From the IMG/VR virus record IMGVR_UViG_3300045988_150292, positions 1 through 64,000 of that record: a stretch of DNA of 64,000 nucleotides; one strand, given 5' to 3'. A program made the translations under genes and the position numbers. Below the pieces are notes generated by a model. That model was not told the DNA's origin. It did not search any database and saw nothing but the letters and a program-made list of their open reading frames with translations. Below, piece after piece: positions 181-64,000 of this stretch. How positions within the stretch are numbered: the first letter of the stretch is position 1; each line of letters starts with the position of its first letter. The stretch comes from a virus.

Positions 181-228
181 AGCAAGCCGTGTAGGGCCGG
201 ACGGCTTGCTTTCTTAAAACCGCATCAC
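181..228 (+). promoter_or_regulatory. Intergenic hairpin plus A/T leader unit upstream of the 229 CDS
   Basis: Perfect 10-bp stem AGCAAGCCGT(181-190)/ACGGCTTGCT(201-210), followed by TTCTTAAAACCGCATCAC-ATG. Same layout as the units at 55.5-63.6 kb. Confidence 0.45.
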
Positions 229-561
229 ATGAAGAAATTCAAGAACAACAATGACATCCCTTTCGAGAGGCAGATGCTACCCATCATACAGTCATACGAC
301 CAACTCAGAAGCCTCGTACAGGAGCTCAGAAAGGAGAACATCCAACTCCAGAATGAAAGGGATCTCGCAGAGAGATGCCGCAGGGATTTCCAAAGCGAGA
401 ACTCAAAGCTGAAAAAGAAAGTCCAGTTCCTTGAAAAGATACAACACAGGGAAGCGGAAAAACAGGCTGCAGAAGACATGAAAAAAACTCCAGAACAGCA
501 GTCCTTCGCACAACGGATGAAAAATCTTTTTTTTTGGAAAAAAGCTAATAACCTAAATTAG
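229..561 (+). CDS. Hypothetical coiled-coil protein
   Basis: 110-aa ORF, charged and heptad-like (LRSLVQELRKENIQLQNERDLAE). No family recognised. Confidence 0.55.
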   Translation: MKKFKNNNDIPFERQMLPIIQSYDQLRSLVQELRKENIQLQNERDLAERCRRDFQSENSKLKKKVQFLEKIQHREAEKQAAEDMKKTPEQQSFAQRMKNLFFWKKANNLN

Positions 562-4766: not shown

Positions 4767-4778
4767 AAACTTGAAAAA

Positions 4779-10692: not shown

Positions 10693-10695
10693 AAT

Positions 10696-10848: not shown

Positions 10849-10851
10849 AAT

Positions 10852-14507: not shown

Positions 14508-14984
14508 CTAACTTAGTTTATCCACAAGCGTCCTCACAAGTCCTTTCAGCTCGTTCATGCCGCTTTCAAGCGAACCGATGCGCTCGTCCTGTTTCTTTTT
14601 CTCGGCAAACGCGGGATTCCACTCTTCTTTTATCCTCTCGCAGTCCTTCTTTCTCGCCTCGTGCTTTGCCACACTGTTTATGATGTCGGTGCTCTCGGCC
14701 TCCAGTGCGTCCACTTCTTTGAGTATTCCTTCCCTGTCTACGCTGAGTATCGTGTTTCCTGCGCTCACAACCGAAGAGTCTGCCGGCATGGTGTAGGTGT
14801 TGTTTGCTCCGTTGGTCTCCACGGTCACATCAACAACCGTTGACGATGCCGTTCCGCCGCCGCTGTATTGCGGAAAGCGTGGCTGGGTAATCGCCGTCAC
14901 CCTGCCTATCTCTTCTCTCAGTCCCTCGTCACCCTTGTGCAGCATATACACCGGGTGTCCTTTCTTTATGTCCTTGAACGTCAT
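14508..14984 (-). CDS. Hypothetical protein
   Basis: 158-aa ORF with a C-terminal coiled coil. Confidence 0.5.
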   Translation of the reverse strand: MTFKDIKKGHPVYMLHKGDEGLREEIGRVTAITQPRFPQYSGGGTASSTVVDVTVETNGANNTYTMPADSSVVSAGNTILSVDREGILKEVDALEAESTDIINSVAKHEARKKDCERIKEEWNPAFAEKKKQDERIGSLESGMNELKGLVRTLVDKLS

Positions 14985-15010
14985 AATCTCTGTCTTTTTG
15001 GTTATACAAT

Positions 15011-15041
15011 AAAAGCGGCATCCCGACTTGTGGAATACCGC
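15011..15041. repeat. Cassette-boundary element, copy A
   Basis: AAAAGCGGCATCCCGACTTGTGGAATACCGC is identical over 31 nt to 18096-18126. It is an imperfect inverted copy of 16194-16220. Confidence 0.85.
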
Positions 15042-15102
15042 TTTAGAATAAGGGGGAACAATGCTTTGGCACTGTTCCCTGAATCCCTAATTTGTGTAAA
15101 AG

Positions 15103-50133: not shown

Positions 50134-50586
50134 TTATAAATTCTGTCTTCTTCCGTACTCGCAAATAAGCAGGGCGTCGCAGGTGGCAAGCGTTATCTTC
50201 TTGCCCAAATGCGGGAACATCTGCTGCGCCTTGGCTTTTAGCCTGTTCTTCCACTCTGTCTTTGTGTACTTGCCGCTGCTGCCAAGCTGGTATGCCTTCT
50301 CCCACTTGTTCGGCGTGACGTCTTCTGTGGGGATATGCAGGGCGAGCAACGCCATCTGCAGGTGGCCGTAGCCCTTGCCGAAGTTGAACATCGCACTGCC
50401 GCCGTTGCCGGGCATTCCGCCTACTCGCTCCAGTGTGCAGAAGCTGTCGTCCTTGTACTGCTCCAGGAAGTCAAGCAAATCCTGCGGCGTTTCCGGCATC
50501 TTCACTACATCAAGCACCTCCCCGTCGGCTCCCATCACTGCGATGCCACCGTGCTTGCCTGGGTCTATTCCTATATATCTCTTCAT
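50134..50586 (-). CDS. RuvC-like Holliday junction resolvase
   Basis: RYIGIDPGKHGGIAV (catalytic Asp), CTLERVGG, and a C-terminal ATCDALLICEYG, as in phage RuvC-type resolvases. Confidence 0.7.
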   Translation of the reverse strand: MKRYIGIDPGKHGGIAVMGADGEVLDVVKMPETPQDLLDFLEQYKDDSFCTLERVGGMPGNGGSAMFNFGKGYGHLQMALLALHIPTEDVTPNKWEKAYQLGSSGKYTKTEWKNRLKAKAQQMFPHLGKKITLATCDALLICEYGRRQNL

Positions 50587-51116
50587 TTCTCCTCCTTTCT
50601 TTCAAGTTCCATAATCGTCAGGATGGCGTAGTTTGCAAGGTCTTTAAGACTGTCCTTCATCCCTTCGCCTTTCACCTTCGCCTCATCCTTCATAAGCGAC
50701 TTCACTCGCTCCAGTTTCTCCTTCATGTGTCCGTAGGCGTATGTCATGCCGCACTCCTTGAACAGATTGCTGAAGCTATTCCCGTAGTCTTGATTCTTAG
50801 CCTTATAGGTATCGAGCATCTTGTCAGTGATAGTTTTGAAGCAGTCTGCATCGCTTTTCTCGGTTTCTGTTTTAAAAACCAAGAGATCAGCAACCTTCGC
50901 CAGTGAGACTATATCCACATTATAGGAATACAACGTAGATATGGTTGCTTTAATCCTACACATTTTGTTTCCTATATCAATAATCTTGATGAAGAACGAA
51001 CCAATATTATGTAGAGGATCTATTACGTCAACAAACGACAAACTTGTAATCTCTATCAAATCAAACCTCTCTATCTGCAAGATTGAACCAACCTTAATAT
51101 ATTCTTCCTTAATCAT
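50583..51116 (-). CDS. DUF1599-like domain protein with an AT-rich N-terminal extension
   Basis: The C-terminal half (KAKNQDYGNSF...MKEKLERVKSL...SLKDLANYAILTIMEL) resembles DUF1599. The N-terminal ~90 aa are encoded by much more AT-rich DNA. Confidence 0.5.
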   Translation of the reverse strand: MIKEEYIKVGSILQIERFDLIEITSLSFVDVIDPLHNIGSFFIKIIDIGNKMCRIKATISTLYSYNVDIVSLAKVADLLVFKTETEKSDADCFKTITDKMLDTYKAKNQDYGNSFSNLFKECGMTYAYGHMKEKLERVKSLMKDEAKVKGEGMKDSLKDLANYAILTIMELERKEEK

Positions 51117-52494: not shown

Positions 52495-54042
52495 TCAGTC
52501 GTCGTCTCTGATGAAACTCTCGCTGTCCTCCTTCTTCACCGGAAGCTCGGAAAGCAACACCTGCTCCATAACCCTATCCTCAGTGGCTCCGTATACCTTA
52601 TAGACCATGCCGGAAGGTGTCTTCCTCTTGAAGAAACGCTCCTTGTCCCTCATAAGCCTGCCGAAACGCTGTATAGAAGGGATGTCCCTCTCGTCAACGT
52701 CATTGTCCCTGCAGAACGTAGTGAAGCTCGTATACATCTTCGCAGCGGGTATCTCAACGCCTATCTCGTTCTGCGCCTCCTTGCCCGGACGCATACCGTA
52801 AGCCGCTACCCAGGCAGTAATTGGCTGGCTGCTCATCAGACTCAACAGCTTCTGCCTGTCGTTCAAGTCTGACTCCGGGAACACGAAACGACGCTTCCTC
52901 AGCTCCTGTGCACCGCGAAGGACCCAGTTGAAGACTCCGCTGAGCTCGGAAGAGACTATCTTTGAAGACAATGCCTTGTCCTCCTTCTCCTTGGGGACTA
53001 CGACGTTGAAGCTCACGAACTGAAGCCTTCGTATGAATCCGAAAGAGGCATCCTCGGAAAAAGGAAGCTCGTTCATGTTGAAGATCATATACGGAAGCCT
53101 GCGGGTCTCAAGGATATTCTTCCCCAATTCCCTCATAGGGACAGGCTCTCCGCTGACAAGTCTCTTGAACATTCCGTTGTCTCCCCTGCCGAACTTCTTA
53201 GCGTCAGAGTCCATTGACCAGTTGAAGATGGCGTTCCTTATAGGGAACCTCCCTCTCATTCCCTCGTCTCCCTGCGCAGTCAGCGCCCCGTAGTCCATGG
53301 AACTTATCCTCTCCTTGCCGAAAAGGGCACTCATGACCTCATACACTACGCTCTTGCCGTTCTTTCCGGTACCGAGGAGTATAAGGCACAACTCTATCTT
53401 GGAAGTCGTCTTCCCGTCATATTTGTTATACGCATCACCCCTCTGCACAAGACCGAGTCCGAGGAACATCTGAAGTATCAGACGGGAGGTCTTGTCCGGA
53501 AGCATCTCGTGAAGGAAACTCTGCCATCTCAAACACTTCGCCTTGGGGTCGAAATCATAAGGGTGGTAGTATATGACGTGCCACTCGGGACCGAATGGCA
53601 TCACCTGAGGGTCTATCCTGTTAGTGCCGAAATCAACAACACCGTTCTTGAAAGCTACGACATCAAACTGCGGACTCAATACATTATACAGCTTTATCGT
53701 AGCCAGAAACACATCCCTCATCACTGTAACGTTGTCAACCATCCTCGCAAGCGCAAGACCTTCAAGCAACAGCCTGTACGCCTGCTTCACCACATCATCG
53801 TCACACCTCTCGTATATCACTCCGTTGAAAAGATAGAAACTGCCGTTATACCACTTCACAGGACAGTCCTTCGCAAGCTCCCTTATGCCACGGCAGAAAG
53901 AAAGCTTCTTGCTGTTATACAACTCACCATTGGTACGTCCCCACTCACTCCGCAGAGAGTCAAGACCGTAACGCGGATTCCTCGACAACGTAAGCAACTG
54001 CTGGTACAGAGTGTCTATCATCAATCCTGTATTCCTGCTCAT
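52495..54042 (-). CDS. P4-type primase/helicase (D5-like SF3 NTPase)
   Basis: Walker A LLGTGKNGKS and Walker B-like IFNWSMDSD. Layout matches the phage/plasmid primase P4 C-terminal domain. Confidence 0.7.
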   Translation of the reverse strand: MSRNTGLMIDTLYQQLLTLSRNPRYGLDSLRSEWGRTNGELYNSKKLSFCRGIRELAKDCPVKWYNGSFYLFNGVIYERCDDDVVKQAYRLLLEGLALARMVDNVTVMRDVFLATIKLYNVLSPQFDVVAFKNGVVDFGTNRIDPQVMPFGPEWHVIYYHPYDFDPKAKCLRWQSFLHEMLPDKTSRLILQMFLGLGLVQRGDAYNKYDGKTTSKIELCLILLGTGKNGKSVVYEVMSALFGKERISSMDYGALTAQGDEGMRGRFPIRNAIFNWSMDSDAKKFGRGDNGMFKRLVSGEPVPMRELGKNILETRRLPYMIFNMNELPFSEDASFGFIRRLQFVSFNVVVPKEKEDKALSSKIVSSELSGVFNWVLRGAQELRKRRFVFPESDLNDRQKLLSLMSSQPITAWVAAYGMRPGKEAQNEIGVEIPAAKMYTSFTTFCRDNDVDERDIPSIQRFGRLMRDKERFFKRKTPSGMVYKVYGATEDRVMEQVLLSELPVKKEDSESFIRDDD

Positions 54043-54589
54043 ATCAATTCTCTCTTCTCCTCATTTCACAATTATATTATACAATACGCTAAATACATCA
54101 AAACACACGCAAAAACATATGTAAAAACGTATATCCAATGTAAAAATGCACATTATGATTATTCAGTGCACACTTCTGAACATTGTAGAAGATTGACGTT
54201 TTTCATCAAGTCGTTGAAAACCAATGATTTACGAAATTATCCATACCCGTGGTTTTTTGCCTAACCCAATTTTAACTTCAATCTATTGTATAGCAAAGAT
54301 AAGAAAAATTTCTATAAATATGCAGAAGTACTTTAAAATAAGGGGATTATTATGCATTGTTAACATACATAATATGTAGGATAAATATGCTAAGACAAAA
54401 TCTGACATTTTGAGTGTTTGACCACACTCATATTTTCAAAACAAGCCCCTCTGTATACTTATGCAAAATAACAGGTGTTAACAATCAATGAATAAATCTT
54501 GACAATTAACCTAAATTTGCAGTTGAGAAAAACAAGAAAAAGAAAAAATTTTTGTGGGGTGAGTGACCGCGAAAGCGCCCATTTCCCAT

Positions 54590-54598
54590 GGGGGGGGG
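54590..54598 (+). repeat. Poly-G tract (9 nt) in a GC-rich islet of the AT-rich control region
   Basis: CCCATGGGGGGGGGTGGGTG, preceded by a CGC-GAAA-GCG tetraloop hairpin. Confidence 0.9.
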
Positions 54599-55003
54599 TG
54601 GGTGTCCTTCATTTTTGGTGTCATACCAACACTTATTAAACGTCTATCACACACGTTAAACTATGTTATTTTAGATAACCTTGTTTTGTAAAGATTTTTT
54701 CACACTTTGAAAACCCTTTGTTACTTTTGTAATTATATTTTGTAACCCTCTGTCCTTCAACCACTTACATCCGTATATTAATTCTTTTCTTTTGTATATA
54801 TATCCACAAAAGGCTGAATATTGTATAATTGTATTTACACACTCAAACGTTATCATTATTTAATTAAACTTATATAAAATTCACTCTGTTATTGACCCTC
54901 TTTTGTTAACACACCTTTCGTTTCTTAATTTATATTTTGTGTTTATTGTGTAACTTATTGAATATCAGTTATTTACACGTTAGGTTAAAAATCTAAATTT
55001 TTG

Positions 55004-55011
55004 TATATTTG
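55004..55011 (+). promoter_or_regulatory. -7 box TATATTTG; candidate promoter of the + strand early array
   Basis: Matches TAnnTTTG with a TTTTTG stretch just upstream. No + strand gene lies before it in the 1-kb gap. Confidence 0.45.
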
Positions 55012-55142
55012 TTTGGCAGCTACATATATTGTTAGTACCTTGGGGTACGTTCAGCGGAACGCATATATATACCTATGCTATAGGCGTATCTGGTTGTCTG
55101 GTAGAACCGATATTAAATCTGCCACTTAAATTACATAGAATT

Positions 55143-55433
55143 ATGGATATTATTTTAAGAAATGCTTTTTTCTTCGATGAAAAAACTGGAGTGTTAACAG
55201 ATGAGCTAACTACAGATTTTGTAAGGGCTTGCAAGGCGTGTGGCGTGTGGGAAACTTATGGCATCGTATGCCTCCCCAATCGTCTGTTACGTGTCATTTA
55301 CTTCGATGTTGCGGAATTTGATGAATACACTTTAAACGTGTGGCTGAAAAAATTCCCAGAAAATACTTGGGGGCTTGATGATGAACATCAAGCAATTGCC
55401 GTGGTATTCGCAGAGTACCCAATACCGTATTAA
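55143..55433 (+). CDS. Hypothetical early protein
   Basis: An internal ATG sits in the AGAATTATG context (MDIILRNAFFFDEK...). The track ORF begins at 55029. Confidence 0.5.
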   Translation: MDIILRNAFFFDEKTGVLTDELTTDFVRACKACGVWETYGIVCLPNRLLRVIYFDVAEFDEYTLNVWLKKFPENTWGLDDEHQAIAVVFAEYPIPY

Positions 55434-55443
55434 TTAATGGCAA

Positions 55444-55490
55444 TCCGTGTTAGTTCGAGGCTATACCGTGGTTCAAATCCATGGCACGGA
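55444..55490 (+). other. tRNA-like T-arm plus acceptor-like stem (not a complete tRNA)
   Basis: CCGTGG-TTCAAAT-CCATGG (55466-55484) is a canonical GGTTCAAATCC T-arm. It is enclosed by the stem TCCGTG(55444-55449)/CACGGA(55485-55490). No D arm or anticodon arm is present. Confidence 0.35.
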
Positions 55491-55495
55491 ACAAC

Positions 55496-55531
55496 GGCAA
55501 TATTGCCCAATAACTAAAAAAATTCAAAATT
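55496..55531 (+). promoter_or_regulatory. Hairpin + TAAC-box leader unit U0
   Basis: GGCAATATTGCC palindrome, then CAATAACTAAAAAAATTCAAAATT-ATG. Confidence 0.5.
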
Positions 55532-56050
55532 ATGAAAACTCTAAACGAACGTGTGAAAGATGTGGTGCGTACCGTTGTACTCGATGCGGATTATACGGAA
55601 TTAGGTGAACAATCTAAAGCCGTGCAAGAATGGCTACAGAATGATGCTAAATTCATTCAGTTGAAAAAAGCGTTAGAAGCCTACAGACTTAAGGCTTTTG
55701 CAGAAAACGCTGAGTACCAGAAAATAAGCCGTGCTACATTGTTCACCGCTTTTGTAGCGGTAGTAAAGTTGGTAAAAGGTGTCAACATTCCCGAAAACTA
55801 CCTAACTGAGGACGACGGTAATACCCTTGCGCGTCTTGCATCTGAGAATATATGTGATACAGATTCACGTATAGCTTCACTTATATGTCGGATTAACGAC
55901 ACCTTTAAGCCGGCAAAGGTTACACGTACAACAGAATTCATTCCGTACACTATTGCGGAAATTCGCAAATTGGTTGAACTCATTCAGTTGGGTATTTTGG
56001 AACGTGAAGCGGTGCGAAGACAAGTAAGAGAAGGAAAACGGAAACGTTAA
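55532..56050 (+). CDS. Hypothetical early protein
   Basis: 172-aa ORF with a basic C-terminus. Confidence 0.55.
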   Translation: MKTLNERVKDVVRTVVLDADYTELGEQSKAVQEWLQNDAKFIQLKKALEAYRLKAFAENAEYQKISRATLFTAFVAVVKLVKGVNIPENYLTEDDGNTLARLASENICDTDSRIASLICRINDTFKPAKVTRTTEFIPYTIAEIRKLVELIQLGILEREAVRRQVREGKRKR

Positions 56051-56072
56051 CCGCTACAGACAAGACAAAAAA

Positions 56073-56102
56073 AGGATTGCAATATATTGCAGTCCTTTTT
56101 TT
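56073..56102 (+). terminator. Intrinsic (bidirectional-type) terminator
   Basis: 10-bp stem AGGATTGCAA/TTGCAGTCCT, flanked by A7 upstream and T7 downstream. Confidence 0.8.
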
Positions 56103-56118
56103 GATACCAGATTTTTTT

Positions 56119-56144
56119 AGGGTGCCCAAATTGGGTACCCTTTG
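56119..56144 (+). terminator. Second hairpin terminator
   Basis: 9-bp stem AGGGTGCCC/GGGTACCCT, followed by TTTGTT. Confidence 0.5.
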
Positions 56145-56887
56145 TTATATCCTTTTTTTTCAGAGGATGAAGATTCTAAAAACTGTCTAAACCGACATTC
56201 CGTATATCTCAAGTAACGGAACACTTCCAGACGGAAATAAATTTCCGGAGGATGTGGCAGGTGAGAGGACAGACAGAGGGCAAACCTTCATAGTGATATG
56301 GAGGAGCGGAGGAGAAATCCCGTCGAGCTGTCGAGAAAATCAGGAAGGAGTCAAGCGAGCGTTTAAGCGTGCTAACTACCTTTTCCGAGTCAAGCCCTAC
56401 GCACTGAGTAGGAGTAGATGCAGGCACGGAGAGCAGGATCACGGCAAAAGTTGTACGGATCCCGCCACGATCCGAAGGCAAAGGAGAAGGCAAGAGCAGC
56501 CAGCAGAGGCAGGAGCGGAAACTCCCAGGAGAGCAACCCAATGCACCGTGGAGCCTGAGCCTAACATAAAGCGTTATGTGGGTATTGAGAATTAATCATA
56601 ATTCATATTCTATCGTATGAGCGTGCGAGGTGTGGTTAACCAGAAACGCTCAATATCCGTTATCCGTCACGTGTGGCGGAGCGAGTGAAGAAAGTAGATA
56701 CTGAACGGATTAATGAAATCTACCTGAAAGCGGTTATATGTGAGCCGTGTTACCCTTGAGTATGCAGCAGAAAAACATATCGGACCAATCTTGTTTAATT
56801 GGAGGGTGCCGAATGACGTGAGACATTTTGCAACGAGAGCAAAAGGAAATAGAGGCATCCTGGCTAATGGGGTTGAGAAATCAACCC
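56145..56887 (+). ncRNA. Candidate large structured non-coding RNA (class unknown; strand tentative)
   Basis: About 0.75 kb with no credible ORF in an otherwise tightly packed genome. GC content is like coding DNA and the + strand is purine-rich. It contains many short perfect hairpins: 56198-56221, 56232-56247, 56456-56474, 56564-56579, 56664-56679, and 56870-56887 (GAAA loop). Confidence 0.4.
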
Positions 56888-56917
56888 TACAATATAAACC
56901 ATTAAAATTGTAGAATT
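56870..56917 (+). promoter_or_regulatory. Hairpin + AACC-box leader unit U1
   Basis: GGGTTGA-GAAA-TCAACCC, then TACAATATAAACCATTAAAATTGTAGAATT-ATG. Confidence 0.55.
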
Positions 56918-57148
56918 ATGAAGAAGATTGCGTGCAGTTCATTGTGTGTGTTGTTTATCATTTTGGCGTGCTCCCTGATACCTGCCTATATCACAGGTGT
57001 CAGGGAGCTGCTGGATTCAGCCACACTGACGGAGATAGACTGGAGCCTGACAGTGTGGAGCGGTGTATTGTTCACCGTTTCCACTGCCTTCCTCGGTGTT
57101 GTCATTGCAGATGTGTTCATAACTGCATATCTGGCGGTAAAGAAGTAA
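56918..57148 (+). CDS. Small membrane protein
   Basis: 76 aa with two TM helices. Confidence 0.55.
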   Translation: MKKIACSSLCVLFIILACSLIPAYITGVRELLDSATLTEIDWSLTVWSGVLFTVSTAFLGVVIADVFITAYLAVKK

Positions 57149-57158
57149 AGCCTTAACG

Positions 57159-57238
57159 AGCAGGACATCGTGTAATGTGGTGTCCTGCTTTCATCATTAA
57201 CTGAATGATTTGGAATTTAATTTGAAAACTATAGAATT
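57159..57238 (+). promoter_or_regulatory. Hairpin + TAAC-box leader unit U2
   Basis: AGCAGGACA...TGTCCTGCT, then TTCATCATTAACTGAA...TATAGAATT-ATG. Confidence 0.55.
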
Positions 57239-57355
57239 ATGACAAACGACGAGATTTATTACGAGATGGCAGGCGGTTATATCTGCCTCTGCCATTATGG
57301 AGAGCAGCTCCCAGAGACTTCACCAGAGAGAGAAGGAAAGGAGGTGGCACTATGA
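57239..57355 (+). CDS. Very small protein (38 aa; below the track cutoff)
   Basis: MTNDEIYYEMAGGYICLCHYGEQLPETSPEREGKEVAL*. ATGA coupling to the next gene. Confidence 0.4.
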   Translation: MTNDEIYYEMAGGYICLCHYGEQLPETSPEREGKEVAL

Positions 57356-57588
57356 GAAGAGAGAAGATATATTCAAGTACGATAATTCTGCTTGGAATTA
57401 TTCAGGTGCTTCCAATTTTCCTGCTCCTGGGAAGTACGATAATTGGCGGTCTGCTTGGAGTGTTTTATGCCGTTCTGCTCTGGAAATTCTGGAGAAGTAC
57501 GAGAATTGGAAGATGGTTCATGCGAGAGTGGTGGCGTTCCACGCTGCTGCTTGAGAGGATCATCTTCGGAGGCAATGCAGAGTGTTGA
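57352..57588 (+). CDS. Small membrane protein
   Basis: 78 aa with two TM helices. Confidence 0.5.
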   Translation: MRREKIYSSTIILLGIIQVLPIFLLLGSTIIGGLLGVFYAVLLWKFWRSTRIGRWFMREWWRSTLLLERIIFGGNAEC

Positions 57589-57620
57589 AATTCTGCGGTG
57601 AAAATGCCGGAGCCTGAAAA

Positions 57621-57667
57621 CTGCCTGTAATCCGGGCAGTACGATAATAACTAAAAACGAAAGAATT
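57621..57667 (+). promoter_or_regulatory. Hairpin + TAAC-box leader unit U3
   Basis: CTGCC...GGCAG, then TACGATAATAACTAAAAACGAAAGAATT-ATG. Confidence 0.5.
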
Positions 57668-57841
57668 ATGAAAGTATTGATTAGAGAAAGGTATTTTACA
57701 GACAAGTTCACCTGCAACGAGTTTTACAGAGAACATGTCATTACACGCATGGAAGAGCGTGGAGATATGTACCAGTTGTATCAGGGTGCATATACATACA
57801 TGTGTGTCCCAAAAAGTGACATTATAAATATAGAATCATGA
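57668..57841 (+). CDS. Small protein (57 aa; below the track cutoff)
   Basis: MKVLIRERYFTDKFTCNEFYREHVITRMEERGDMYQLYQGAYTYMCVPKSDIINIES*. Confidence 0.45.
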   Translation: MKVLIRERYFTDKFTCNEFYREHVITRMEERGDMYQLYQGAYTYMCVPKSDIINIES

Positions 57842-57990
57842 AAACAAGAAGACAGGCAGCCATGGAGCTGCTTCCATTGTATAATTCAATGGAAACAAGG
57901 AAAATCACATTAGGCACTCTCGCAAGGAAAATGTATAAGTGCGGTGATTGCTGGAGATGTACCGGTGTTGGCTACGACTACACCGTGTAA
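57838..57990 (+). CDS. Small Cys-containing protein (50 aa)
   Basis: ATGA overlap with the upstream gene. Contains ...KMYKCGDCWRCTGVGYDYTV*. Confidence 0.45.
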   Translation: MKTRRQAAMELLPLYNSMETRKITLGTLARKMYKCGDCWRCTGVGYDYTV

Positions 57991-57997
57991 GCCAAAA

Positions 57998-58050
57998 AAG
58001 GCAGTACGATAATCTGTGCTGCCTTCATTGTCTAACTAAAACTTTGAATT
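57998..58050 (+). promoter_or_regulatory. Hairpin + TAAC-box leader unit U4
   Basis: AAGGCAG...CTGCCTT, then CATTGTCTAACTAAAACTTTGAATT-ATG. Shares GGCAGTACGATAAT with U3. Confidence 0.55.
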
Positions 58051-58377
58051 ATGGAATATATCAGAACAAAAGAGTATGACACGCCCATCGACGTGTATTT
58101 CGACGGAGAGAAGTACGTTTTCATCAACCGCTTCATCGGTCTCGTTGCCGTTGCCAGAAGAAAAGGGACATCGGCATTCTCCGATGACGGGAACACCTGT
58201 TATTCCACATTCTCAGTGGAGCACACTGACGGCATCTGCAAGGAGACGATAATAAAGGTGATACAGAAGCAGGAGAGCCAGTATCTCCCGTGCAGCGTCG
58301 CCTACAAATGGAAGGAGGAGCAGAAATATTCCTCTCTTCGTTACTCTGTCTCCGTGAAGCTGGAGAGAATGGGATAA
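58051..58377 (+). CDS. Hypothetical early protein
   Basis: 108-aa ORF. Confidence 0.55.
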   Translation: MEYIRTKEYDTPIDVYFDGEKYVFINRFIGLVAVARRKGTSAFSDDGNTCYSTFSVEHTDGICKETIIKVIQKQESQYLPCSVAYKWKEEQKYSSLRYSVSVKLERMG

Positions 58378-58387
58378 GCCTGAACGG

Positions 58388-58443
58388 TCCTCACCTCAAA
58401 AAGGTGGGGATTTCTTTTTACTAACCCTAAAAAAAGAAGAATT
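58388..58443 (+). promoter_or_regulatory. Hairpin + TAACC-box leader unit U5
   Basis: TCCTCACC-TCAAAAA-GGTGGGGA, then TTTCTTTTTACTAACCCTAAAAAAAGAAGAATT-ATG. Confidence 0.6.
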
Positions 58444-58806
58444 ATGAGAACAAGAAAGTACAAGACCCTGACAGGGCTGCTGAAGGCATACGACAGAAAG
58501 CAGTTCACAATGAACGATTTCTTGTCTGGACGAATCTATGACGGCTACAAGACATTTAAGTTTGAACTGTCTGACGAAGCCCTAAGAGAATTGTCCGACG
58601 GCTTTTGTTATGCCTGCAACTGCCAGAAATCAAAACGCGACACGGTTTTCTTCAACATGAAATTCCATAAGATATTGAACCGTGGTATTCTGGACAGGCT
58701 ATGGGTGGAGTTATGGAATGGCAAACCGAGCTTCACCTTCTGCGTAGGACAGGACGGAGATTATGAGTATCCGCTTGTTAGAAGAACCCTATATCGGGGT
58801 TATTGA
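58444..58806 (+). CDS. Hypothetical early protein
   Basis: 120-aa ORF. Confidence 0.55.
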   Translation: MRTRKYKTLTGLLKAYDRKQFTMNDFLSGRIYDGYKTFKFELSDEALRELSDGFCYACNCQKSKRDTVFFNMKFHKILNRGILDRLWVELWNGKPSFTFCVGQDGDYEYPLVRRTLYRGY

Positions 58807-58813
58807 GCCAAAT

Positions 58814-58869
58814 GGCGTACATTTCCAAGTGTGCGCCTCATTTTACTAACCCTTTAAAACATTAGAATT
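58814..58869 (+). promoter_or_regulatory. Hairpin + TAACC-box leader unit U6
   Basis: GGCGTAC...GTGCGCC, then TCATTTTACTAACCCTTTAAAACATTAGAATT-ATG. Confidence 0.6.
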
Positions 58870-60438
58870 ATGATTTTTATTAAAAGTTTCAAAAACTACG
58901 AAGAGTTCAAGAAGTTGTTTGCAATCGTGGAACACGGCAACGGAGCCAAGTCTCGCAAGAACAAGATTCTGCTTGCATGGCTCAAGGACAGACGCTTCCT
59001 CAAGGCGTGGCTCTCTTTCCAGAGGACCATGCTGAACAAAGGACTGGTGGCTGAAGAGTTCGTCTACAAATACGATTATCTTAACGCCAGAAGTATGGAC
59101 GATGTGAAAAAAGCCGTTCTCCGTATCTCGGAGTCATTCGCCGCATATCATTTTGACGGCGGACAACCTCAATGGATGGAGAATTACGGACCTTTTGTCC
59201 TTAACGACTGGCCATTGCGCCACCGGACTCTCTATATCGACAGCCGCCACGGGTTGTGTGCCGACGGAGACACGAAATCCGTCCGCTACATCAATTCAGA
59301 GCGTGGCGACAGGGTGTTCAAGATGAAGGCAGGAAAATTCATAACTTCCTGTCTCGACAGCCTGCCGTTCACAGAAATCCTACCTGAACAGGTCAAACGA
59401 TGGATAGGCGAGGAGTTCGCCCGTGACTGGCAGGTATATGCAGAGTCCCTTATCGGAGAGTCTGCGTTGACGCTCCACGTGGGATCTGACAAAAGCGACT
59501 TTGAGACCATCTACGACAAAAACCTATACAAGGGAGATTTCCACTCCTGTATGGGAGGCGAGGACCAATACTTCTTCTATGCCGACGCCGTGGATGCCAG
59601 CGCAGCATGGCTGACAGACAGTGACGGAATGATAGTGGCACGTTGTGTCATCTTCAATGACGTCATAGACGAGGAAGGGAAATCCTGGAGACTGGCAGAG
59701 CGTCAATACTCGTCCGATATGGACGAAGTTCTAAAGCAGACGCTTGTGAACAGACTCATCAAGGAAGGCCTCATCGACGGCTACAAGCGTGTCGGTGTCG
59801 ATTGTCACGACAACAGGAATTTCGTCGCCAACAACGGCGAGTCCCTGAGGGCGAAGCGGTTCTCTATCGAATGCCGGCTGTGCGATGGTGATACGTTGTC
59901 GTATCAGGACAGCTTTGTCTGTTACGACTACAACAAGGACATCGCATACAATCATTCCGATGTATACTACACCGACGATCTGGACGTAACCAATCATCAT
60001 TTCTACTGTTCACACGACAACGAAAGATGGTCGGACTATTCGCAAGAGTGGATCGCCGATAATGTCGCCGAGTATGACGACTATCACGAGGACTGGATGC
60101 ACGAGGACTGTTCGACTGATGCTATATATAACGGACACCACATCCATATCAACGAATACCGCACGAATGATTTCGTGTGGTCTGAAGAGGAAGACTGCTA
60201 CATCTATGAGGATGAGGCGGTATGGGTTGAAAACCTCAACGACGACATCCTCAGAAGAAACGCCGTCGAGGACATCCACGGAGAGTGGCAGCGTGCAAAC
60301 GATTGTGTGCACTCTGCATATCACGATGAGTACATCCTCAAAGAGGATGCTATTTACTCCGAAGTCCTCGAAGACTGGTTCGAAGACGAGGATACGATGC
60401 ACGAAGCAGAGAAAGAAGAACTTGAAGTAGAAGCCTGA
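58870..60438 (+). CDS. Large early protein with a hyper-acidic, aromatic-rich C-terminal third
   Basis: 522 aa. The last ~170 aa are dominated by D/E/Y/W/H (DDYHEDWMHEDC..., EEEDCYIYEDEAVWVENLNDD..., EDWFEDEDTMHEAEKEELEVEA). No family recognised. Confidence 0.6.
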   Translation: MIFIKSFKNYEEFKKLFAIVEHGNGAKSRKNKILLAWLKDRRFLKAWLSFQRTMLNKGLVAEEFVYKYDYLNARSMDDVKKAVLRISESFAAYHFDGGQPQWMENYGPFVLNDWPLRHRTLYIDSRHGLCADGDTKSVRYINSERGDRVFKMKAGKFITSCLDSLPFTEILPEQVKRWIGEEFARDWQVYAESLIGESALTLHVGSDKSDFETIYDKNLYKGDFHSCMGGEDQYFFYADAVDASAAWLTDSDGMIVARCVIFNDVIDEEGKSWRLAERQYSSDMDEVLKQTLVNRLIKEGLIDGYKRVGVDCHDNRNFVANNGESLRAKRFSIECRLCDGDTLSYQDSFVCYDYNKDIAYNHSDVYYTDDLDVTNHHFYCSHDNERWSDYSQEWIADNVAEYDDYHEDWMHEDCSTDAIYNGHHIHINEYRTNDFVWSEEEDCYIYEDEAVWVENLNDDILRRNAVEDIHGEWQRANDCVHSAYHDEYILKEDAIYSEVLEDWFEDEDTMHEAEKEELEVEA

Positions 60439-60440
60439 AA

Positions 60441-60500
60441 AAAGGCGGGAGATGTAATGCTCCTGCCTTTACATCATTAACCATTAAAACATTTAGAATT
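60441..60500 (+). promoter_or_regulatory. Hairpin + TAACC-box leader unit U7
   Basis: AAAGGCGGGAG...CTCCTGCCTTT, then ACATCATTAACCATTAAAACATTTAGAATT-ATG. Confidence 0.6.
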
Positions 60501-61442
60501 ATGAAAGAAAAATTGAATTACGAGTTACTTAAAGATCTGTACTGCATCCATTCAAAAAGCGGCAGCGAGAAACGCATCCGTCGATTCATCAAGAAATGGC
60601 TAAAAGCTAATGTTCCTGAAGCTGTCGTGACACAGGACAATATAGGAAACCTCTACATCACGAAAGGTGTTGCGGTTAATTACCCCTGCCTGTGCGCACA
60701 CATGGACCAGGTGCAGGATTTCCATCCTTCTGACTTCACTTGTGTGGAGACTGACGAGGTCATTTTCGGCTATTCGCCCAAGATGCGCAAGCAGTGCGGA
60801 CTGGGAGCCGACGACAAGAACGGGATATTCCTTGCGCTCTCTGCGCTGATGGAATACCCTGTCCTCAAATGTGCCTTCTTCATCGGAGAGGAAATCGGCT
60901 GCATCGGCTCAAGCGCCGCAGACATCGGCTTCTTCATAGACTGCCGTTTCTGCGCCCAGATTGACAGGCGTGGAAGCAGTGACATGGTGACAGAAATCTC
61001 CGGTCCGCTCTGCTCAGATGGTTTCATCAAGGCTGCGGACTGCGAGAGCTGGGGCTACCATGAGTCCGGCGGAATGATGACGGACGTAGAGGCGCTTGCA
61101 GAAGCCGGTGTCAGCGTGTCGTGCATCAATCTGTCCTGCGGATATTACGATCCGCACACCGACTGCGAGTTCACCCACAAGCCCGACCTTGAGAAATGCT
61201 GGGCTTTCGTATGCCATCTCATAGAGGACTGCACTGCGGTCTATCCGTTCGAATACACAAACGGATGTCAAGGTTCAACAAGAACTTTTTACGTCAAAGA
61301 CAGTCTCTTATATGAGATGGAATGTGTCCTTGCAGAAGAACCGAATACCACATTCAGAGACTTCTACGACAACGTGGGATGTATGTATTCTGAGGTCAGT
61401 AGAGAAAGTCAGCACATACTGTTCGACTTTGCTAAGAAGTAA
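60501..61442 (+). CDS. Zinc metallopeptidase-like protein (M20/M28/M42 clan pattern)
   Basis: The ordered ligand-like motifs CAHMDQV, GLGADDKNG, GEEIGCIGS and YDPHT are typical of co-catalytic aminopeptidases. Confidence 0.5.
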   Translation: MKEKLNYELLKDLYCIHSKSGSEKRIRRFIKKWLKANVPEAVVTQDNIGNLYITKGVAVNYPCLCAHMDQVQDFHPSDFTCVETDEVIFGYSPKMRKQCGLGADDKNGIFLALSALMEYPVLKCAFFIGEEIGCIGSSAADIGFFIDCRFCAQIDRRGSSDMVTEISGPLCSDGFIKAADCESWGYHESGGMMTDVEALAEAGVSVSCINLSCGYYDPHTDCEFTHKPDLEKCWAFVCHLIEDCTAVYPFEYTNGCQGSTRTFYVKDSLLYEMECVLAEEPNTTFRDFYDNVGCMYSEVSRESQHILFDFAKK

Positions 61443-61451
61443 GCCTTAAAG

Positions 61452-61508
61452 AGCCCTGCTCCTCACGGAGTGGGGCTTCCTATTTTCTAACCTTTAAATT
61501 TCAAGAAT
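61452..61508 (+). promoter_or_regulatory. Hairpin + TAACC-box leader unit U8
   Basis: AGCCCTGCTCC-TCAC-GGAGTGGGGCT, then TCCTATTTTCTAACCTTTAAATTTCAAGAAT-ATG. Confidence 0.6.
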
Positions 61509-62186
61509 ATGGACAAGAAAAAGTACATTGAAATTCTGTCTTCCGAGGCGGAGAAGAACGGCAGGCCACAAGAGTCTGCCCTGGATGATTTCCTCGACTA
61601 CGTGATAGACTATTTCGACGTCAAGAGCCTGCAGTCCGGTATGGACTCATACGGCAATCACATTCTGGAGCAGAGGCGCAAATCGCACGGCTTCTTCAAT
61701 CTTGTCATAATGTGGCTTCAAGATGTCGCCAAGGCTATGGAGCGTGGAGAATGGCTCGATGTGTTCGGCATTCTTTATGAGGAGATGTACCTCTCTCGCG
61801 GCAAGGCTTCACGCACGGGACAGTTCTTCACTCCCCAGTGCGTGTCAGGCCTCATGGCTCAGGTAATCGACACCGGCAAGGAATGTGGCACGGTCAACGA
61901 CTGCGCTTCCGGCAGCGGACGTCTCCTTCTCGCCCATTATATCAGCAAGAGCAGGACGGATCATTATGCCGGACGCCGCTTCAAGTATGTGGCGCAGGAT
62001 TGCGATCCTATCGCCTGCAAGATGTGCGCCTGCAACATGATGGCGCACGGAATGTACGGAATGGTCATCTGCCAGAACACTCTGACGATGAGCGTGCCCT
62101 CCGTTGTGTACTACATCAACGAGGCTAAATATCCGTTCGACACACCTTACTGCTCCATCCGTGCGGTACGCAACGAAAAAGCCTGA
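61509..62186 (+). CDS. HsdM/N6-methyltransferase-like SAM-binding protein with no recognisable catalytic motif IV
   Basis: FGILYEEMY...TGQFFTPQCVSGLMAQVI, motif I VNDCASGSGRLLLA, and YVAQDCDPIACKMCACNMMAHG. The protein ends ~35 aa after CQNTLTM with no (N/D)PP(F/Y/W). Confidence 0.55.
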   Translation: MDKKKYIEILSSEAEKNGRPQESALDDFLDYVIDYFDVKSLQSGMDSYGNHILEQRRKSHGFFNLVIMWLQDVAKAMERGEWLDVFGILYEEMYLSRGKASRTGQFFTPQCVSGLMAQVIDTGKECGTVNDCASGSGRLLLAHYISKSRTDHYAGRRFKYVAQDCDPIACKMCACNMMAHGMYGMVICQNTLTMSVPSVVYYINEAKYPFDTPYCSIRAVRNEKA

Positions 62187-62190
62187 AACG

Positions 62191-62228
62191 GCCTCCCCTG
62201 TGGAGGCACATGTTTAACCAATTAAAAA
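62191..62228 (+). promoter_or_regulatory. Hairpin + TAACC-box leader unit U9
   Basis: GCCTCC-CCTGT-GGAGGC, then ACATGTTTAACCAATTAAAAA(ATG)ATT-ATG. Confidence 0.6.
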
Positions 62229-62447
62229 ATGATTATGAATACGAATTTAAAAATTGCGCAGTGTGGAATCAGTGATGTTGTCGGTGGCAGAATGTGGTTT
62301 TGTGTAAAGCCCGACAATCCGCGTAAGGTTGAACGTTTTTATACAAAGAGAGAGTGCGAGGCGTATATACGCAAAGAACATAATTCTAATCCTTATCTTC
62401 TGAAAGAATTGCGTAATACTCATGGCAGAGCTTTTATTTACGCCTAA
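62229..62447 (+). CDS. Small early protein
   Basis: 72 aa. An alternative start at 62235 fits the ATTATG context. Confidence 0.5.
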   Translation: MIMNTNLKIAQCGISDVVGGRMWFCVKPDNPRKVERFYTKRECEAYIRKEHNSNPYLLKELRNTHGRAFIYA

Positions 62448-62450
62448 AAA

Positions 62451-62496
62451 CAGAGAGTTTGTGCTCTCTGACATTATTAACCAAAATTCAGAATTT
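62451..62496 (+). promoter_or_regulatory. Hairpin + TAACC-box leader unit U10
   Basis: CAGAGAG-TTTGTG-CTCTCTG, then ACATTATTAACCAAAATTCAGAATTT-ATG. Confidence 0.65.
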
Positions 62497-62769
62497 ATGA
62501 GAAAGATAAAATGTGACTACCATTATGTAGACAACCTCGTCGCACGATACGAAGAGAAGGGAGGATATGCCATACAGCTCAATGAGGGTTCGCTCGCTTC
62601 TGGCGACTGGATTCTGTACGACGACACAGGGAAGCTGAAATGCTTCTATATCTACGAGGAAGCTCTCAGCTCATGGGCTTCTTGCCAGATCGTACAGGTT
62701 TACAGGGACTGGAACGGATTCCCGAAGAAATACAAGAAGATGGTGGAATCCTGCTGTGTCTACGCCTAA
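62497..62769 (+). CDS. Small early protein
   Basis: The start is moved to MRKIKCDYHY. The track start at 62422 would read through the hairpin and box. Confidence 0.5.
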   Translation: MRKIKCDYHYVDNLVARYEEKGGYAIQLNEGSLASGDWILYDDTGKLKCFYIYEEALSSWASCQIVQVYRDWNGFPKKYKKMVESCCVYA

Positions 62770-62772
62770 AAA

Positions 62773-62819
62773 CAGAGGGAGCAATCCCTCTGCCATTATT
62801 AACCAAATTATCAAGAATT
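62773..62819 (+). promoter_or_regulatory. Hairpin + TAACC-box leader unit U11
   Basis: CAGAGGGA-GCAA-TCCCTCTG, then CCATTATTAACCAAATTATCAAGAATT-ATG. The flanks are near-identical to U10 while the stem has compensatory changes. Confidence 0.65.
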
Positions 62820-63047
62820 ATGAAGAGATTTTACGTATCAGTCACAGAGACTTTAAACAAGGTAGTAAGTGTAGATGCCGAGAACGAGAAAGACGCATTG
62901 GAACAAGTAAAAGCAGCCTACTATGATTCGGCTATTGTTCTTGATTCTGACAATTTCTGTGGAGAAACTATAGAGATTGAAGACGACCAGCAGTTCTATA
63001 TCGACTATGAGAAGGACTACGGCAAAACCTATCAGCACGTAGACTGA
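62820..63047 (+). CDS. Small early protein
   Basis: The start is moved to [14 protein letters not shown]... (75 aa). Confidence 0.5.
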
Positions 63048-63054
63048 GCCGGAC

Positions 63055-63097
63055 GGAGGCACACGCCTCCACATCATTAACCAAATTTTTTACAATC
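63055..63097 (+). promoter_or_regulatory. Hairpin + TAACC-box leader unit U12
   Basis: GGAGGC-ACAC-GCCTCC, then ACATCATTAACCAAATTTTTTACAATC-ATG. Confidence 0.6.
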
Positions 63098-63574
63098 ATG
63101 GATATAGCAATAATGAATTATTCGACAGCTGAAATCACAACAATCACAGGCTGTCCCGACAAGTGGGAGAACGAGCAGATCGAAGAATATCTCTTCAAGA
63201 AACTCAATCTCAAAGAGAGTGAAATACACTATATGTGTGCCAAAAGCGTCACCCACAAGACGGAGAAATACCGGACGCTTGAGGTGTGGCCTCTCCTGGA
63301 GCAGTTCCAGGAGCTGAAAGTGAAGCATCCTGATGCCCTGTTGCTCTTCCGTAGCGGCGATTTCTACGAGGCTTATATGGAGGATGCAGTGACAGCCGCC
63401 AATCTCCTCGGAATAACGCTGACACGCTACAGCAAGCAGGTGGACGGCGAAGGCAAGCCGATAAAACTGGCAGGATTCCCTTATCATGCTCTCGACACCT
63501 ATCTGCCGAAACTCATACGGGCAGGACAGCGGATAGCCATCTGCGACTATACGGATATTCTTCCTGAACGATAG
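63098..63574 (+). CDS. Standalone MutS domain I (mismatch-binding domain) protein
   Basis: Residues ~65-150 ([47 protein letters not shown]...[32 protein letters not shown]) align with the MutS N-terminus (TPMMQQYL.LKAQHP..LLFYRMGDFYELF..DA..AS.LL.I.LT.R....G.PIPMAG.PYHA...YL.KLV..G..VAICEQ). The Phe-x-Glu motif is kept. No other MutS domain is present. Confidence 0.75.
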
Positions 63575-63589
63575 CCGCAAGCCTTGAAA

Positions 63590-63636
63590 GGTGGGGTTGA
63601 AAAGCCTCACCGCATACAAACCAAAACTTTAGGAAT
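63590..63636 (+). promoter_or_regulatory. Hairpin + AACC-box leader unit U13
   Basis: GGTGGGG-TTGAAAAG-CCTCACC, then GCATACAAACCAAAACTTTAGGAAT-ATG. Confidence 0.55.
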
Positions 63637-64000
63637 ATGACAGAACAGGAAATCATCAGGAGGGTGGAGAACGGAGAGAAGTTCTTCATAAACCTCGAAA
63701 AGCGCACTCTGCGCATCGCAAACCACCTCGTTGACCTCAAGGAGGTGGAGATGCCCGAATACGACGGCGACGTGTTGAAGGAGATAGAGAGGAGATACAG
63801 GATATACAAGCACTCCGTCCCCTCCGAACGCTCTGAGTCCCACCGTCGCAGGTATTTCAAGGCTCTGCCGGAAAGTAAGCTGTCCGACGAGGCGATGATG
63901 TACGGAGAGCAGCGTGAGGTCGCACGGTGCAGCCTTGAGCTATTCGTCCTTATGGCAATAGTCAGAGGCATCCTCACATGGCACGAGGAATGGGGCTCGT
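63637..64000 (+). CDS. Hypothetical early protein (partial; runs off the window)
   Basis: The frame is open from the ATG at 63637 to the window end (MTEQEIIRRVENGEKFFINLEKRTLRIANHLVDLKEVEMPEYDGD...). It is absent from the track because no stop codon is reached. Confidence 0.55.
   Translation, partial: MTEQEIIRRVENGEKFFINLEKRTLRIANHLVDLKEVEMPEYDGDVLKEIERRYRIYKHSVPSERSESHRRRYFKALPESKLSDEAMMYGEQREVARCSLELFVLMAIVRGILTWHEEWGS

Follow-up and report, generated by a model that had tools for sequence, protein, structure and literature searches.

A repeated unit at the junctions of the array

The window analysed here, the first 64,000 nucleotides of the IMG/VR virus record IMGVR_UViG_3300045988_150292, carries towards its 3' end a plus-strand gene array whose junctions repeat one composite unit: a hairpin of variable sequence, a conserved AACC box and an A-rich start region ending in AGAATT-ATG. 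A preliminary description, made from the sequence alone, had listed fourteen such junctions, beginning at 55496; the array in fact starts at 55143, with a gene that has the start region only (Table 1). Reading of the sequence and folding of the spacers confirm clean units at thirteen of the fourteen junctions (U2 to U14), whereas U1 is weak, with only a 4-bp palindrome followed by AATAACT. A look-alike that had been placed at 181-228 retains the hairpin and an AAACC but lacks AGAATT and the usual spacing to the ATG.

Every stop-to-ATG spacer longer than about 40 nt between 56859 and 63636 was folded, with z taken against shuffles, and each yields one dominant hairpin (stem 6-15 bp, dG -9.6 to -20.8 kcal/mol, z -3.5 to -6.6). 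In the window units, 7-10 nt separate the hairpin from the AAC[CT] box and 9-18 nt separate the box from the ATG, with the exception of U3 (36 nt). A fourth conserved element, (A)GCCT(G/A/T)AA(A), lies directly 5' of the hairpin and commonly overlaps or abuts the stop codon. All eight plus-strand copies of AGAATTATG in the window fall inside 55137-62814, and a loose composite of hairpin, AAC[CT] and ATG occurs 12 times on the plus strand of the ~7-kb array, as against ~16 times per 128 kb of shuffled sequence (both strands), making it ~13-fold denser in the array than the shuffles predict. A search with fixed spacing returns 8 matches, with 8.9 expected; unit spacing is variable. The pair of units with near-identical flanks and differing stems (CAGAGAG versus CAGAGGGA), noticed at the outset, is U11 and U12.

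The unit is characteristic of a whole group of related phages. When IMG/VR was scanned for exact matches to the pattern, at least 120 stretches were found, and pooling of the loci gave 843 non-identical units from ~100 phage contigs. Their consensus reads stop-GCCTAAAA-[variable hairpin]-CnAnTATT-AACC-AAnAAA..AGAATT-ATG-AA, with stems of 5-14 bp, loops mainly of 4-6 nt, 5-10 nt between hairpin and AACC, and 13-18 nt from AACC to the ATG. The core is AACC, not AACU, in 88% of units, and lineages have their own flavours both 5' of the hairpin (e.g. TAAGCCTGAA versus TAGTCTC) and before AACC (CATYATT, TCTATT or GCTATTGTTT). In relatives reached through the 522-aa array protein (L001-L011, L014 and L016, protein identity down to ~40%), the array strand has 14-25 units and the opposite strand 1-6, and most dense-array loci among the matches listed have at least one array protein in common with the window. 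No published description of a hairpin-plus-leader module was found in the literature searched.

Table 1. Positions of the junction units, related elements and other annotated features of the 64,000-nt window
Feature	Position	Strand	Details
First array gene start	55137..55145	+	gene 55143-55433, 96 aa; AGAATT-ATG (ACATAGAATTATG) without hairpin or AACC box
U1, degenerate	55496..55534	+	4-bp palindrome GGCA/TGCC (GGCAATATTGCC); AATAACT at 55512; AAAATT-ATG at 55532
U2	56868..56920	+	hairpin 56868-56889, GAAA loop, dG -12.4; AACC 56897; TAGAATT-ATG 56918
U3	57158..57241	+	hairpin 57158-57190; AACT 57199; long 36-nt spacer; AAAACTATAGAATT-ATG 57239
U4	57620..57670	+	hairpin 57620-57640; AACT 57649; AAAGAATT-ATG 57668
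U5	57998..58053	+	hairpin 57998-58025; AACT 58034; TTTGAATT-ATG 58051
U6	58386..58446	+	hairpin 58386-58412, T-rich terminator-like tail; AACC 58423; AAGAATT-ATG 58444
U7	58814..58872	+	hairpin 58814-58837, T-rich tail; AACC 58848; TAGAATT-ATG 58870 (522-aa gene)
U8	60441..60503	+	hairpin 60441-60470; ACATCATT-AACC 60479; TAGAATT-ATG 60501
U9	61451..61511	+	hairpin 61451-61478, dG -20.8, T-rich tail; AACC 61489; CAAGAAT-ATG 61509
U10	62191..62237	+	hairpin 62191-62207; AACC 62216; ATG 62229 or 62235
U11	62451..62499	+	hairpin 62451-62470 (CAGAGAG/CTCTCTG); ACATTATT-AACC 62479; ATG 62497; direct repeat of U12
U12	62773..62822	+	hairpin 62773-62792 (CAGAGGGA/TCCCTCTG, GCAA loop); AACC 62801; AAGAATT-ATG 62820
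U13	63055..63100	+	hairpin 63055-63070; ACATCATT-AACC 63079; ATG 63098 (MutS domain I protein)
U14	63590..63639	+	hairpin 63590-63611, GAAA loop; AACC 63619; AGGAAT-ATG 63637
Complete unit outside the array	14982..15044	-	hairpin ~15044-15012; TATTGTA; TAACC 15004; AAAAAGACAGAGATT-ATG 14984
Partial look-alike	181..231	+	good hairpin 181-210; AAACC 218; ATG 229, only 7 nt on; no AGAATT
TAACC box before gene starts outside the array	7796, 10528	+	
TAACC box before gene starts outside the array	13999, 14984, 39884, 41697	-	
57-aa gene	57668..57841	+	absent from L001-L005; breakpoints 57673 and 57832 in common AGAAT(T/C)ATGAAA start contexts
Three canonical Bacteroidota -7 motifs	54512..55011	+	TAAATTTG 54512; TACTTTTG 54722; TATATTTG 55004
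Canonical intrinsic terminator	56066..56141	+	A-tract, hairpin 56074-56095, T7 run; second hairpin 56119-56141
DnaD-like replication initiator	602-1585		PHROGs and Pfam matches
Tape-measure protein, 2190 aa	31818-38390	-	PHROGs and Pfam matches
Major head protein	41719-42900	-	PHROGs and Pfam matches
Large terminase (TerL)	44571-46211		PHROGs and Pfam matches
Portal protein	46199-47911		PHROGs and Pfam matches
Primase	52495-54042	-	PHROGs and Pfam matches

Hairpin, probable leader and gene exchange

The hairpins vary in sequence and not in kind. Among 350 tetraloops in unit hairpins, 119 are GNRA (~11 expected if all loops were equally likely) and 40 are UNCG, as against 31 for the reverse complement of GNRA. 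The 843 units carry 479 distinct hairpin sequences, and at the junction before the 522-aa gene (the orthologue of U7) each lineage keeps a hairpin of unrelated sequence, which bears out across the family the initial observation that pairing rather than stem sequence is conserved. Together, the tetraloop bias, the sequence diversity and the hairpin at the orthologous junction argue for selection on a stable sense-strand RNA hairpin and not on a DNA site.

The same evidence bears on a DNA-level explanation, in which the unit would be a stoperator-like operator for a phage DNA-binding protein or an attC-like recombination target, with the hairpin forming a cruciform. The motif is orientation-specific and sits at junctions, like the L5 stoperators (PMC3203893), relatives encode two tyrosine recombinases, and AACC is present in the ori iterons. 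However, the sense-strand bias towards GNRA and UUCG loops points to RNA, the flanks do not pair mutually as attC R'/R'' do, homologous exchange between duplicated units accounts for the indels, and the iterons are inverted repeats of a different architecture; we regard a DNA-level site as very improbable. The suggestion that the units are operators for a phage regulator is thus weakened by the loop bias, and the link once drawn to the iterons at 550-880 seems coincidental, the iterons being inverted AACCTAAT...ATAGGTT repeats and the junction boxes having no inverted partner. Integron attC sites consist of mutually pairing R''/R' cores (RYYYAAC / GTTRRRY) around a variable centre and are served by an IntI integrase. 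As a specific candidate they were rejected: there is no complementarity between GCCTAAAA on the 5' side and TATTAACC on the 3' side, and the loops show RNA-strand bias.

Compared with a canonical intrinsic terminator, the units have the hairpin, and most of them lack the U-tract, as first reported. The 8 nt after the stem contain on average 2.7 T in the pooled units; a tract of at least five T in these 8 nt follows only U6, U7 and U9 in the window and 66 of the 843 units in the family. This suggests that most unit hairpins would be poor terminators. The sequence at 56074-56102, with A-tract, stem and seven T, is the contrast case, a full terminator in the same phage. On the 5' side of the unit hairpins there is an A-tract (A 51-79% at -5 to -2), and its conservation exceeds that of the T-rich 3' side. 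In the minus-strand direction, units such as that at 62451-62470 look like intrinsic terminators (a hairpin plus TTTTTAGGC), and could block antisense transcription entering the array.

Anchored on the ATG, the 843 units show A at -13 (80%), -12 (75%), -6 (72%), -4 (71%) and -3 (79%), T at -1 (84%) and, by preference, at -2, G at no more than 4% from -19 to -11, and no Shine-Dalgarno sequence. In Flavobacterium johnsoniae, of the Shine-Dalgarno-blind class, ribosome profiling and mutagenesis identified A at -3, -6, -12 and -13 as positive determinants of initiation (PMC6847099). Because adenine is enriched at these very positions in the absence of a Shine-Dalgarno sequence, the 3' half of the unit matches the initiation rules of Bacteroidia and, judged by its sequence, is a translation-initiation region of that type, a function that the preliminary description had not considered. 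The minimum-free-energy folds leave all sequence 3' of the hairpin unpaired in 11 of the 14 window spacers, with some extra weak pairing in U3, U6 and U14. The likeness to the Bacteroidia start region (Baez et al. 2019, PMC6847099) thus extends from the adenines to a G-poor, unstructured leader and an AAA-rich second codon, and leader length is near the modal 5' untranslated region (5'UTR) of Bacteroides thetaiotaomicron, which is 23 nt (PMC7366714), the distance from TAACC to the ATG being 19-24 nt. Host genes, however, show a loose preference, whereas here a stretch of ~25 nt, AACC..AAAA..AGAATT, is found with hardly any change at hundreds of junctions, comes with a hairpin upstream of it and includes AACC, which does not figure in the published rules.

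The TAACC box is not specific to the array, as several genes for structural and replication proteins also have it, 20-25 nt ahead of their ATG (Table 1). In ~10 independent cases among relatives, a canonical TAnnTTTG lies 7-15 nt (mode 8) upstream of AACC, with the same A-run and AGAATT-ATG after it; the integrase gene of L001/L140 is one example of this promoter-box-start order, which is also found in the window at 14055 on the minus strand. Given the promoter 7-15 nt upstream, the box belongs to the transcribed leader in these copies, within its first few nucleotides. Exact ATTAACCA-N7-13-AGAATTATG matches in bacterial genomes are about as numerous as chance predicts; in our own tally ~70% of those in Bacteroidota lie at starts of long open reading frames (ORFs), versus ~23% in other phyla, and the matches in Bacteroidota chromosomes include the operon-internal EF-Ts gene tsf (rpsB-tsf). 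At tight junctions AACC lies within the upstream coding sequence in 9 of 71 cases, several of which are ORF-calling artefacts. Neither AACC nor the 5' flank is known to pair convincingly with the Bacteroidia 16S 3' tail.

The genome has three styles of start region: the AACC module, a generic A-rich one and a Shine-Dalgarno-like one. The last (AGGAGG/AAGGAG 5-12 nt before the ATG) occurs in a subset of genes despite the presumed Shine-Dalgarno-blind class of the host, at minus-strand genes 49363-49560, 50134-50586, 50583-51116, 14140-14496 and 52495-54042, at plus-strand gene starts 10224 and 11268, and in L006, L011 and L140 (CI-like repressor and integrase). At 10528-11271, three tandem small paralogues (54, 50 and 139 aa) have near-identical junctions, ATGTAACA(A/C)TTTAT(A/G)ATTATTAGAAT-ATG, which lie inside the preceding coding sequence and have a box-like TAAC and no hairpin.

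Alignment of the window with its close relatives L001-L005, a check already proposed, places the breakpoints of gene gain and loss at units or between duplicated units, so that gene differences from these relatives are bounded by them. Besides the 57-aa gene of Table 1, the gene at 62497-62769, between the near-identical U11 and U12, is absent from L002 (breakpoints 62500/62761); the U10-U11 segment holds other genes, of 0.3-2.8 kb, in L003-L005 (breakpoints 62227-62246/62442-62472); and in L003 U6 is present twice, with compensatory changes between the two stems and an additional gene in between.

This behaviour is that of the promoter-early stem-loop (PeSL) cassettes of T4-type phages (Arbiol et al. 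2010, PMC2839356; Comeau et al. 2014, PMC4122927), to which the units had been likened. In both, a short composite intergenic motif is repeated at the junctions of small, mainly ORFan genes and brings together a stem-loop, flanks that are conserved and the next gene's start region, and relatives differ by motif-bounded insertions, deletions or replacements, including genes between two copies. The likeness holds for evolution and fails for the promoter: a PeSL has a full host sigma-70 consensus promoter, an AT-rich upstream element, a Shine-Dalgarno sequence and a stem-loop shown to terminate, whereas the units have neither a TAnnTTTG promoter nor a Shine-Dalgarno sequence, most of their stems lack a U-tract, and the setting is a probably temperate siphovirus-like phage of Bacteroidota. 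What the junctions share here seems to be an element of translation and RNA structure, and not a promoter.

A proposed RNA module at each junction and its alternatives

With moderate confidence, we read the unit as an intercistronic RNA hairpin plus a standardised leader that doubles as a recombination cassette boundary. The reading draws directly on what the sequences show: how the units are built and that they are conserved across the family, that the loops are biased towards the RNA strand, that the start region agrees with the initiation rules, where the box lies with respect to promoters, and where the indels end. The host RNA polymerase would make a long polycistronic transcript of accessory genes with one RNA module, of two functional halves, at each junction. 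In the hairpin half, an A-tract and then a thermodynamically optimised hairpin, just past the stop codon and folding in the sense RNA, probably serves as a leaky attenuator that allows read-through, as a 3'-end or stability element, and as an insulator against pairing between adjacent coding sequence and the start region that follows. The leader half would be a Shine-Dalgarno-less stretch of ~22-24 nt made up of (T)AACC, an A-run at -14 to -11 and AGAAUU-AUG, the A-run and AGAAUU providing A at -13, -12, -6 and -3, which promotes initiation in Bacteroidia. AACC would be the point at which this leader starts on its 5' side, the usual place for the beginning of host mRNAs and the one for which relatives position canonical promoters, and may be an enhancer akin to the epsilon element of T7 gene 10. 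Since ~40 nt are common to all junctions, the units could also serve as homologous or microhomology recombination sites, at which gene cassettes are added, deleted or swapped.

Two known elements offer partial parallels to the leader. The epsilon enhancer, reportedly the original work of Olins and Rangwala, has a UUAAC core followed by A/U-rich sequence, and its position, which in the g10 leader we take to be ~16-25 nt upstream of the initiation codon, resembles that of the AACC box. Unlike the units, which have no Shine-Dalgarno sequence and a core that is mostly AACC, epsilon (UUAACUUUAA, cited in PMC9590205) acts together with a strong Shine-Dalgarno sequence in E. coli, by a disputed mechanism, so that the comparison may be one of analogy. 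The start-associated sequences (SAS) and extended SAS (ESAS) of Cluster K mycobacteriophages (Pope et al. 2011, PMC3203893), for which a role in translation initiation has been proposed, are likewise conserved motifs without symmetry that all face the same way and directly precede the ATG of many non-structural genes, with an inverted repeat immediately upstream at about half of the SAS sites, and are kept across subclusters with subcluster-specific variants. However, the SAS is a 13-bp motif with an AGGAG Shine-Dalgarno core 3-7 nt from the start codon, and the 17-bp inverted-repeat arms of the ESAS keep their sequence and offer no support for RNA pairing, whereas the box here lies 13-18 nt from the ATG without AGGAG and the stems vary while pairing and tetraloops are kept; this too would be an analogy only.

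A further parallel leads to an alternative. In T7 early RNase III sites and plastid intercistronic elements, a structured element at each junction of a polycistronic transcript gives stable single-gene mRNAs. Likewise, the unit may be an RNA processing or stability site, at which an endoribonuclease (host RNase E/G- or Y-like, or phage-encoded) would cut UAUU/AACC 3' of the hairpin, leaving the upstream mRNA with a protective 3' hairpin and the downstream mRNA with a 5' end at about AACC and a host-like 5'UTR of ~22 nt. The loops are optimised as sense-strand RNA, the distance from hairpin to AACC is fixed, the sequence linking the two is rich in A/U and poor in G, AACC falls where the 5' end of an mRNA usually is (in promoter-driven copies and with respect to the modal 23-nt 5'UTR), and in U3 the box goes with the hairpin rather than with the ATG. 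Yet no nuclease recognising such a site was identified in the phage, and we know of none that does so; box leaders that have no hairpin are found too, after promoters and before the genes that start at 7796 and 10528. RNase III requires internal loops and a stem of ~20 bp or more. With perfect pairing over 5-14 bp, the unit stems fall short of this length, and RNase III sites were rejected on this ground; the comparison with T7 would again be by analogy. Processing is on the whole unlikely as the explanation; it is nevertheless viable, lies near the reading as hairpin plus leader and is compatible with it.

The hairpin-plus-leader reading presupposes transcription through the array. Three canonical promoters sit in a 1.1-kb divergent control region upstream of it (Table 1), and on the plus strand from 55004 to 64000 there is no TAnnTTTG save one chance copy inside a gene, and none in any unit, which upholds the view that the units are not host-type promoters. 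Pfam scans of most window proteins of at least 50 aa and, for the rest of the genome, of the larger ORFs in relatives detected no RNA polymerase or sigma domain, and PHROGs and PDB searches of the three largest window proteins found neither. The proposal of a phage-specific promoter loses ground accordingly: besides the lack of a detected polymerase or sigma factor, the box occurs before structural genes and downstream of host promoters, within the leader. Promoters of the N4-type hairpin or single-subunit phage polymerase kind were rejected on the same lack of a polymerase domain, the giant proteins having no PDB relatives and hairpin sequence not being conserved. A sigma-70/ECF reading, with TTAACC as -35 and TAGAAT as -10, fails on a variable spacing of 7-13 nt and on a start site that would fall within the ORF.

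A second alternative makes the units stop-restart cassettes and true analogues of PeSLs. The hairpin would end the upstream transcript and the CnAnTATTAACCAA box would be a compact non-canonical promoter or initiator for the host RNA polymerase, which might be redirected by a phage factor, as yet unrecognised, that the first two genes encode, each gene being its own transcription unit with a leader of ~15-20 nt. This would fit a box that is highly conserved with lineage-specific flavours, lies at a fixed 5-10 nt from the hairpin and is placed where transcription begins when a canonical promoter is present; it would also fit the more than 8 kb without canonical promoter past the strong terminator at 56074-56102, the resemblance of U6, U7 and U9 to real terminators, and the layout and evolutionary behaviour shared with PeSLs (PMC2839356). 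The units, however, have no -7 or -33 host motif, and a -7 site would fall in the variable 3' arm of the hairpin; most hairpins miss a U-tract; no polymerase or sigma domain was detected in the scans described above; a box before structural genes and downstream of canonical promoters is unexpected of a class-specific promoter; and identical box and start-region sequences occur within host operons such as rpsB-tsf. Stop-restart is, in our estimate, doubtful.

Several observations weigh against the hairpin-plus-leader reading itself. The strong terminator precedes 8 kb of array without canonical promoter, and U6, U7 and U9 are decent terminators within the array; expression beyond them therefore calls for read-through, antitermination or restart at an unrecognised signal. 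AACC is found at 75% of wide array junctions versus ~9% of sampled host genes and is too conserved for a loose initiation preference; its 2.3-fold enrichment at -25 to -16 of 232 other Bacteroidota genes is small, and for TAAC is confounded by TAA stop codons. Its lineage-specific flanks look as though a specific factor recognised the box or gene conversion took place between units. The spacing of the box to the hairpin (5-10 nt) is as tight as that to the ATG, and in U3, where the two ends are set apart, the box remains by the hairpin and the A-run and AGAATT remain by the ATG. Moreover, the units are not a general need for expression in Bacteroidales, because LoVEphage, a Bacteroides phage, does not have them. 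The reading thus leaves unexplained the near-invariance and lineage flavour of AACC, its coupling to the hairpin, and the passage of 56074-56102, U6, U7 and U9.

Two more specific ideas address AACC and are offered tentatively, as rather unlikely. In one, the hairpin, ~30 nt upstream, would mimic an mRNA 5' end, and AACC, bound by a component of the ribosome such as bS1 or by a phage factor, would place the 30S subunit at a set distance from the AUG, the two together acting as a hitherto unrecognised internal start signal for bacteria that disregard Shine-Dalgarno sequences; in the other, the unit would belong to a new compact class of promoter or initiator for stop-restart on the host polymerase in temperate phages. 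Either, if true, would make the unit a portable, phage-optimised expression part for Bacteroidota.

Under the reading as hairpin plus leader, the units bear on how internal starts are chosen in Bacteroidota, an open question in bacteria without Shine-Dalgarno pairing, for which only weak positional preferences for adenine are known. A large group of gut phages has converged on a near-invariant leader of ~25 nt and a tetraloop hairpin, in hundreds of copies, and so provides a natural, strongly selected consensus that includes an element, AACC, outside current initiation rules. As a combined insulator and start region, the module is a candidate standard part for the engineering of Bacteroides and Segatella. 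The idea behind PeSLs, that regulatory cassettes act as recombination substrates that shuffle ORFans, is extended from T4-type phages of Proteobacteria to temperate phages of gut Bacteroidota.

Two further sequences lie around the start of the array. Between the strong terminator and U2, ~0.7 kb of purine-rich sequence (56145-56860, A+G 59%) contains no convincing ORF and has no Rfam match; it is 91-97% identical in L001-L004, and islands at 56590-56632 (palindrome GAATTAATCATAATTC) and 56724-56778 are kept in distant relatives. This stretch may act as a leader or a non-coding RNA, or it may be involved in regulating the array or in antitermination. The divergent control region contains a G-run-rich hairpin (GCGCCCATTTCCCATGGGGGGGGGTGGGTGT) at 54575-54610, and a similar G-rich element occurs in L014 at ~7060.

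Phage identity, host and neighbouring features

The matches to TerL, portal, major head and tape-measure proteins (Table 1) mark the phage as siphovirus-like and not crAss-like. Three giant ORFs had raised the idea of a crAss-like virion RNA polymerase and its promoters, which was rejected: the 2190-aa giant is the tape-measure protein, the giants have no PDB relatives, and TerL, portal and major capsid are of siphovirus type. In addition, the early promoters of phi14:2 have no motif in common among themselves (bioRxiv 2020.03.07.982082).

The host is a gut Bacteroidota, canonical TAnnTTTG promoters preceding several operons in the window, and is probably Segatella/Prevotella; in a pattern search of bacterial genomes, a contig of a Segatella copri metagenome-assembled genome (L186) is the sole bacterial assembly with several exact unit matches. 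The nearest GenBank relative is LoVEphage (TerL 57% identical, gene order identical), and the array itself has no megablast match among GenBank phages. In relatives of 75-83 kb from IMG/VR, the genes that come after the array encode a reverse transcriptase, two tyrosine integrases, an antirepressor and a CI-like repressor (L005:10699-11964, L001:16507-17772, L140:1206-2174, 3715-4932 and 5252-5779). The reverse transcriptase (RVT_1) is probably that of a diversity-generating retroelement, and the integrases, antirepressor and CI-like repressor make a temperate, LoVEphage-like group probable, for which 'early' may be the wrong label for the array.

Rfam returns nothing at gathering thresholds and only terminator look-alikes at permissive ones, and ARAGORN calls no tRNA in the window. 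Sequences resembling a tRNA T-arm, GTGGTTCAAATCCAT and GGTTCGATTCC, which ARAGORN does not call, occur at 55466-55484, in the spacer before U1, and in L140 at ~7620; they may be tRNA fragments or att-site remnants. The gene of the DnaD-like initiator has inverted iterons directly upstream of it (549-600) and within it (826-880), an arrangement like that of lambda O, with the origin within the initiator gene. Among the array proteins, one of 225 aa has a partial N6 DNA methylase domain and one of 158 aa is MutS domain I alone (61509-62186 and 63098-63574); both may be decoys or serve anti-defence.

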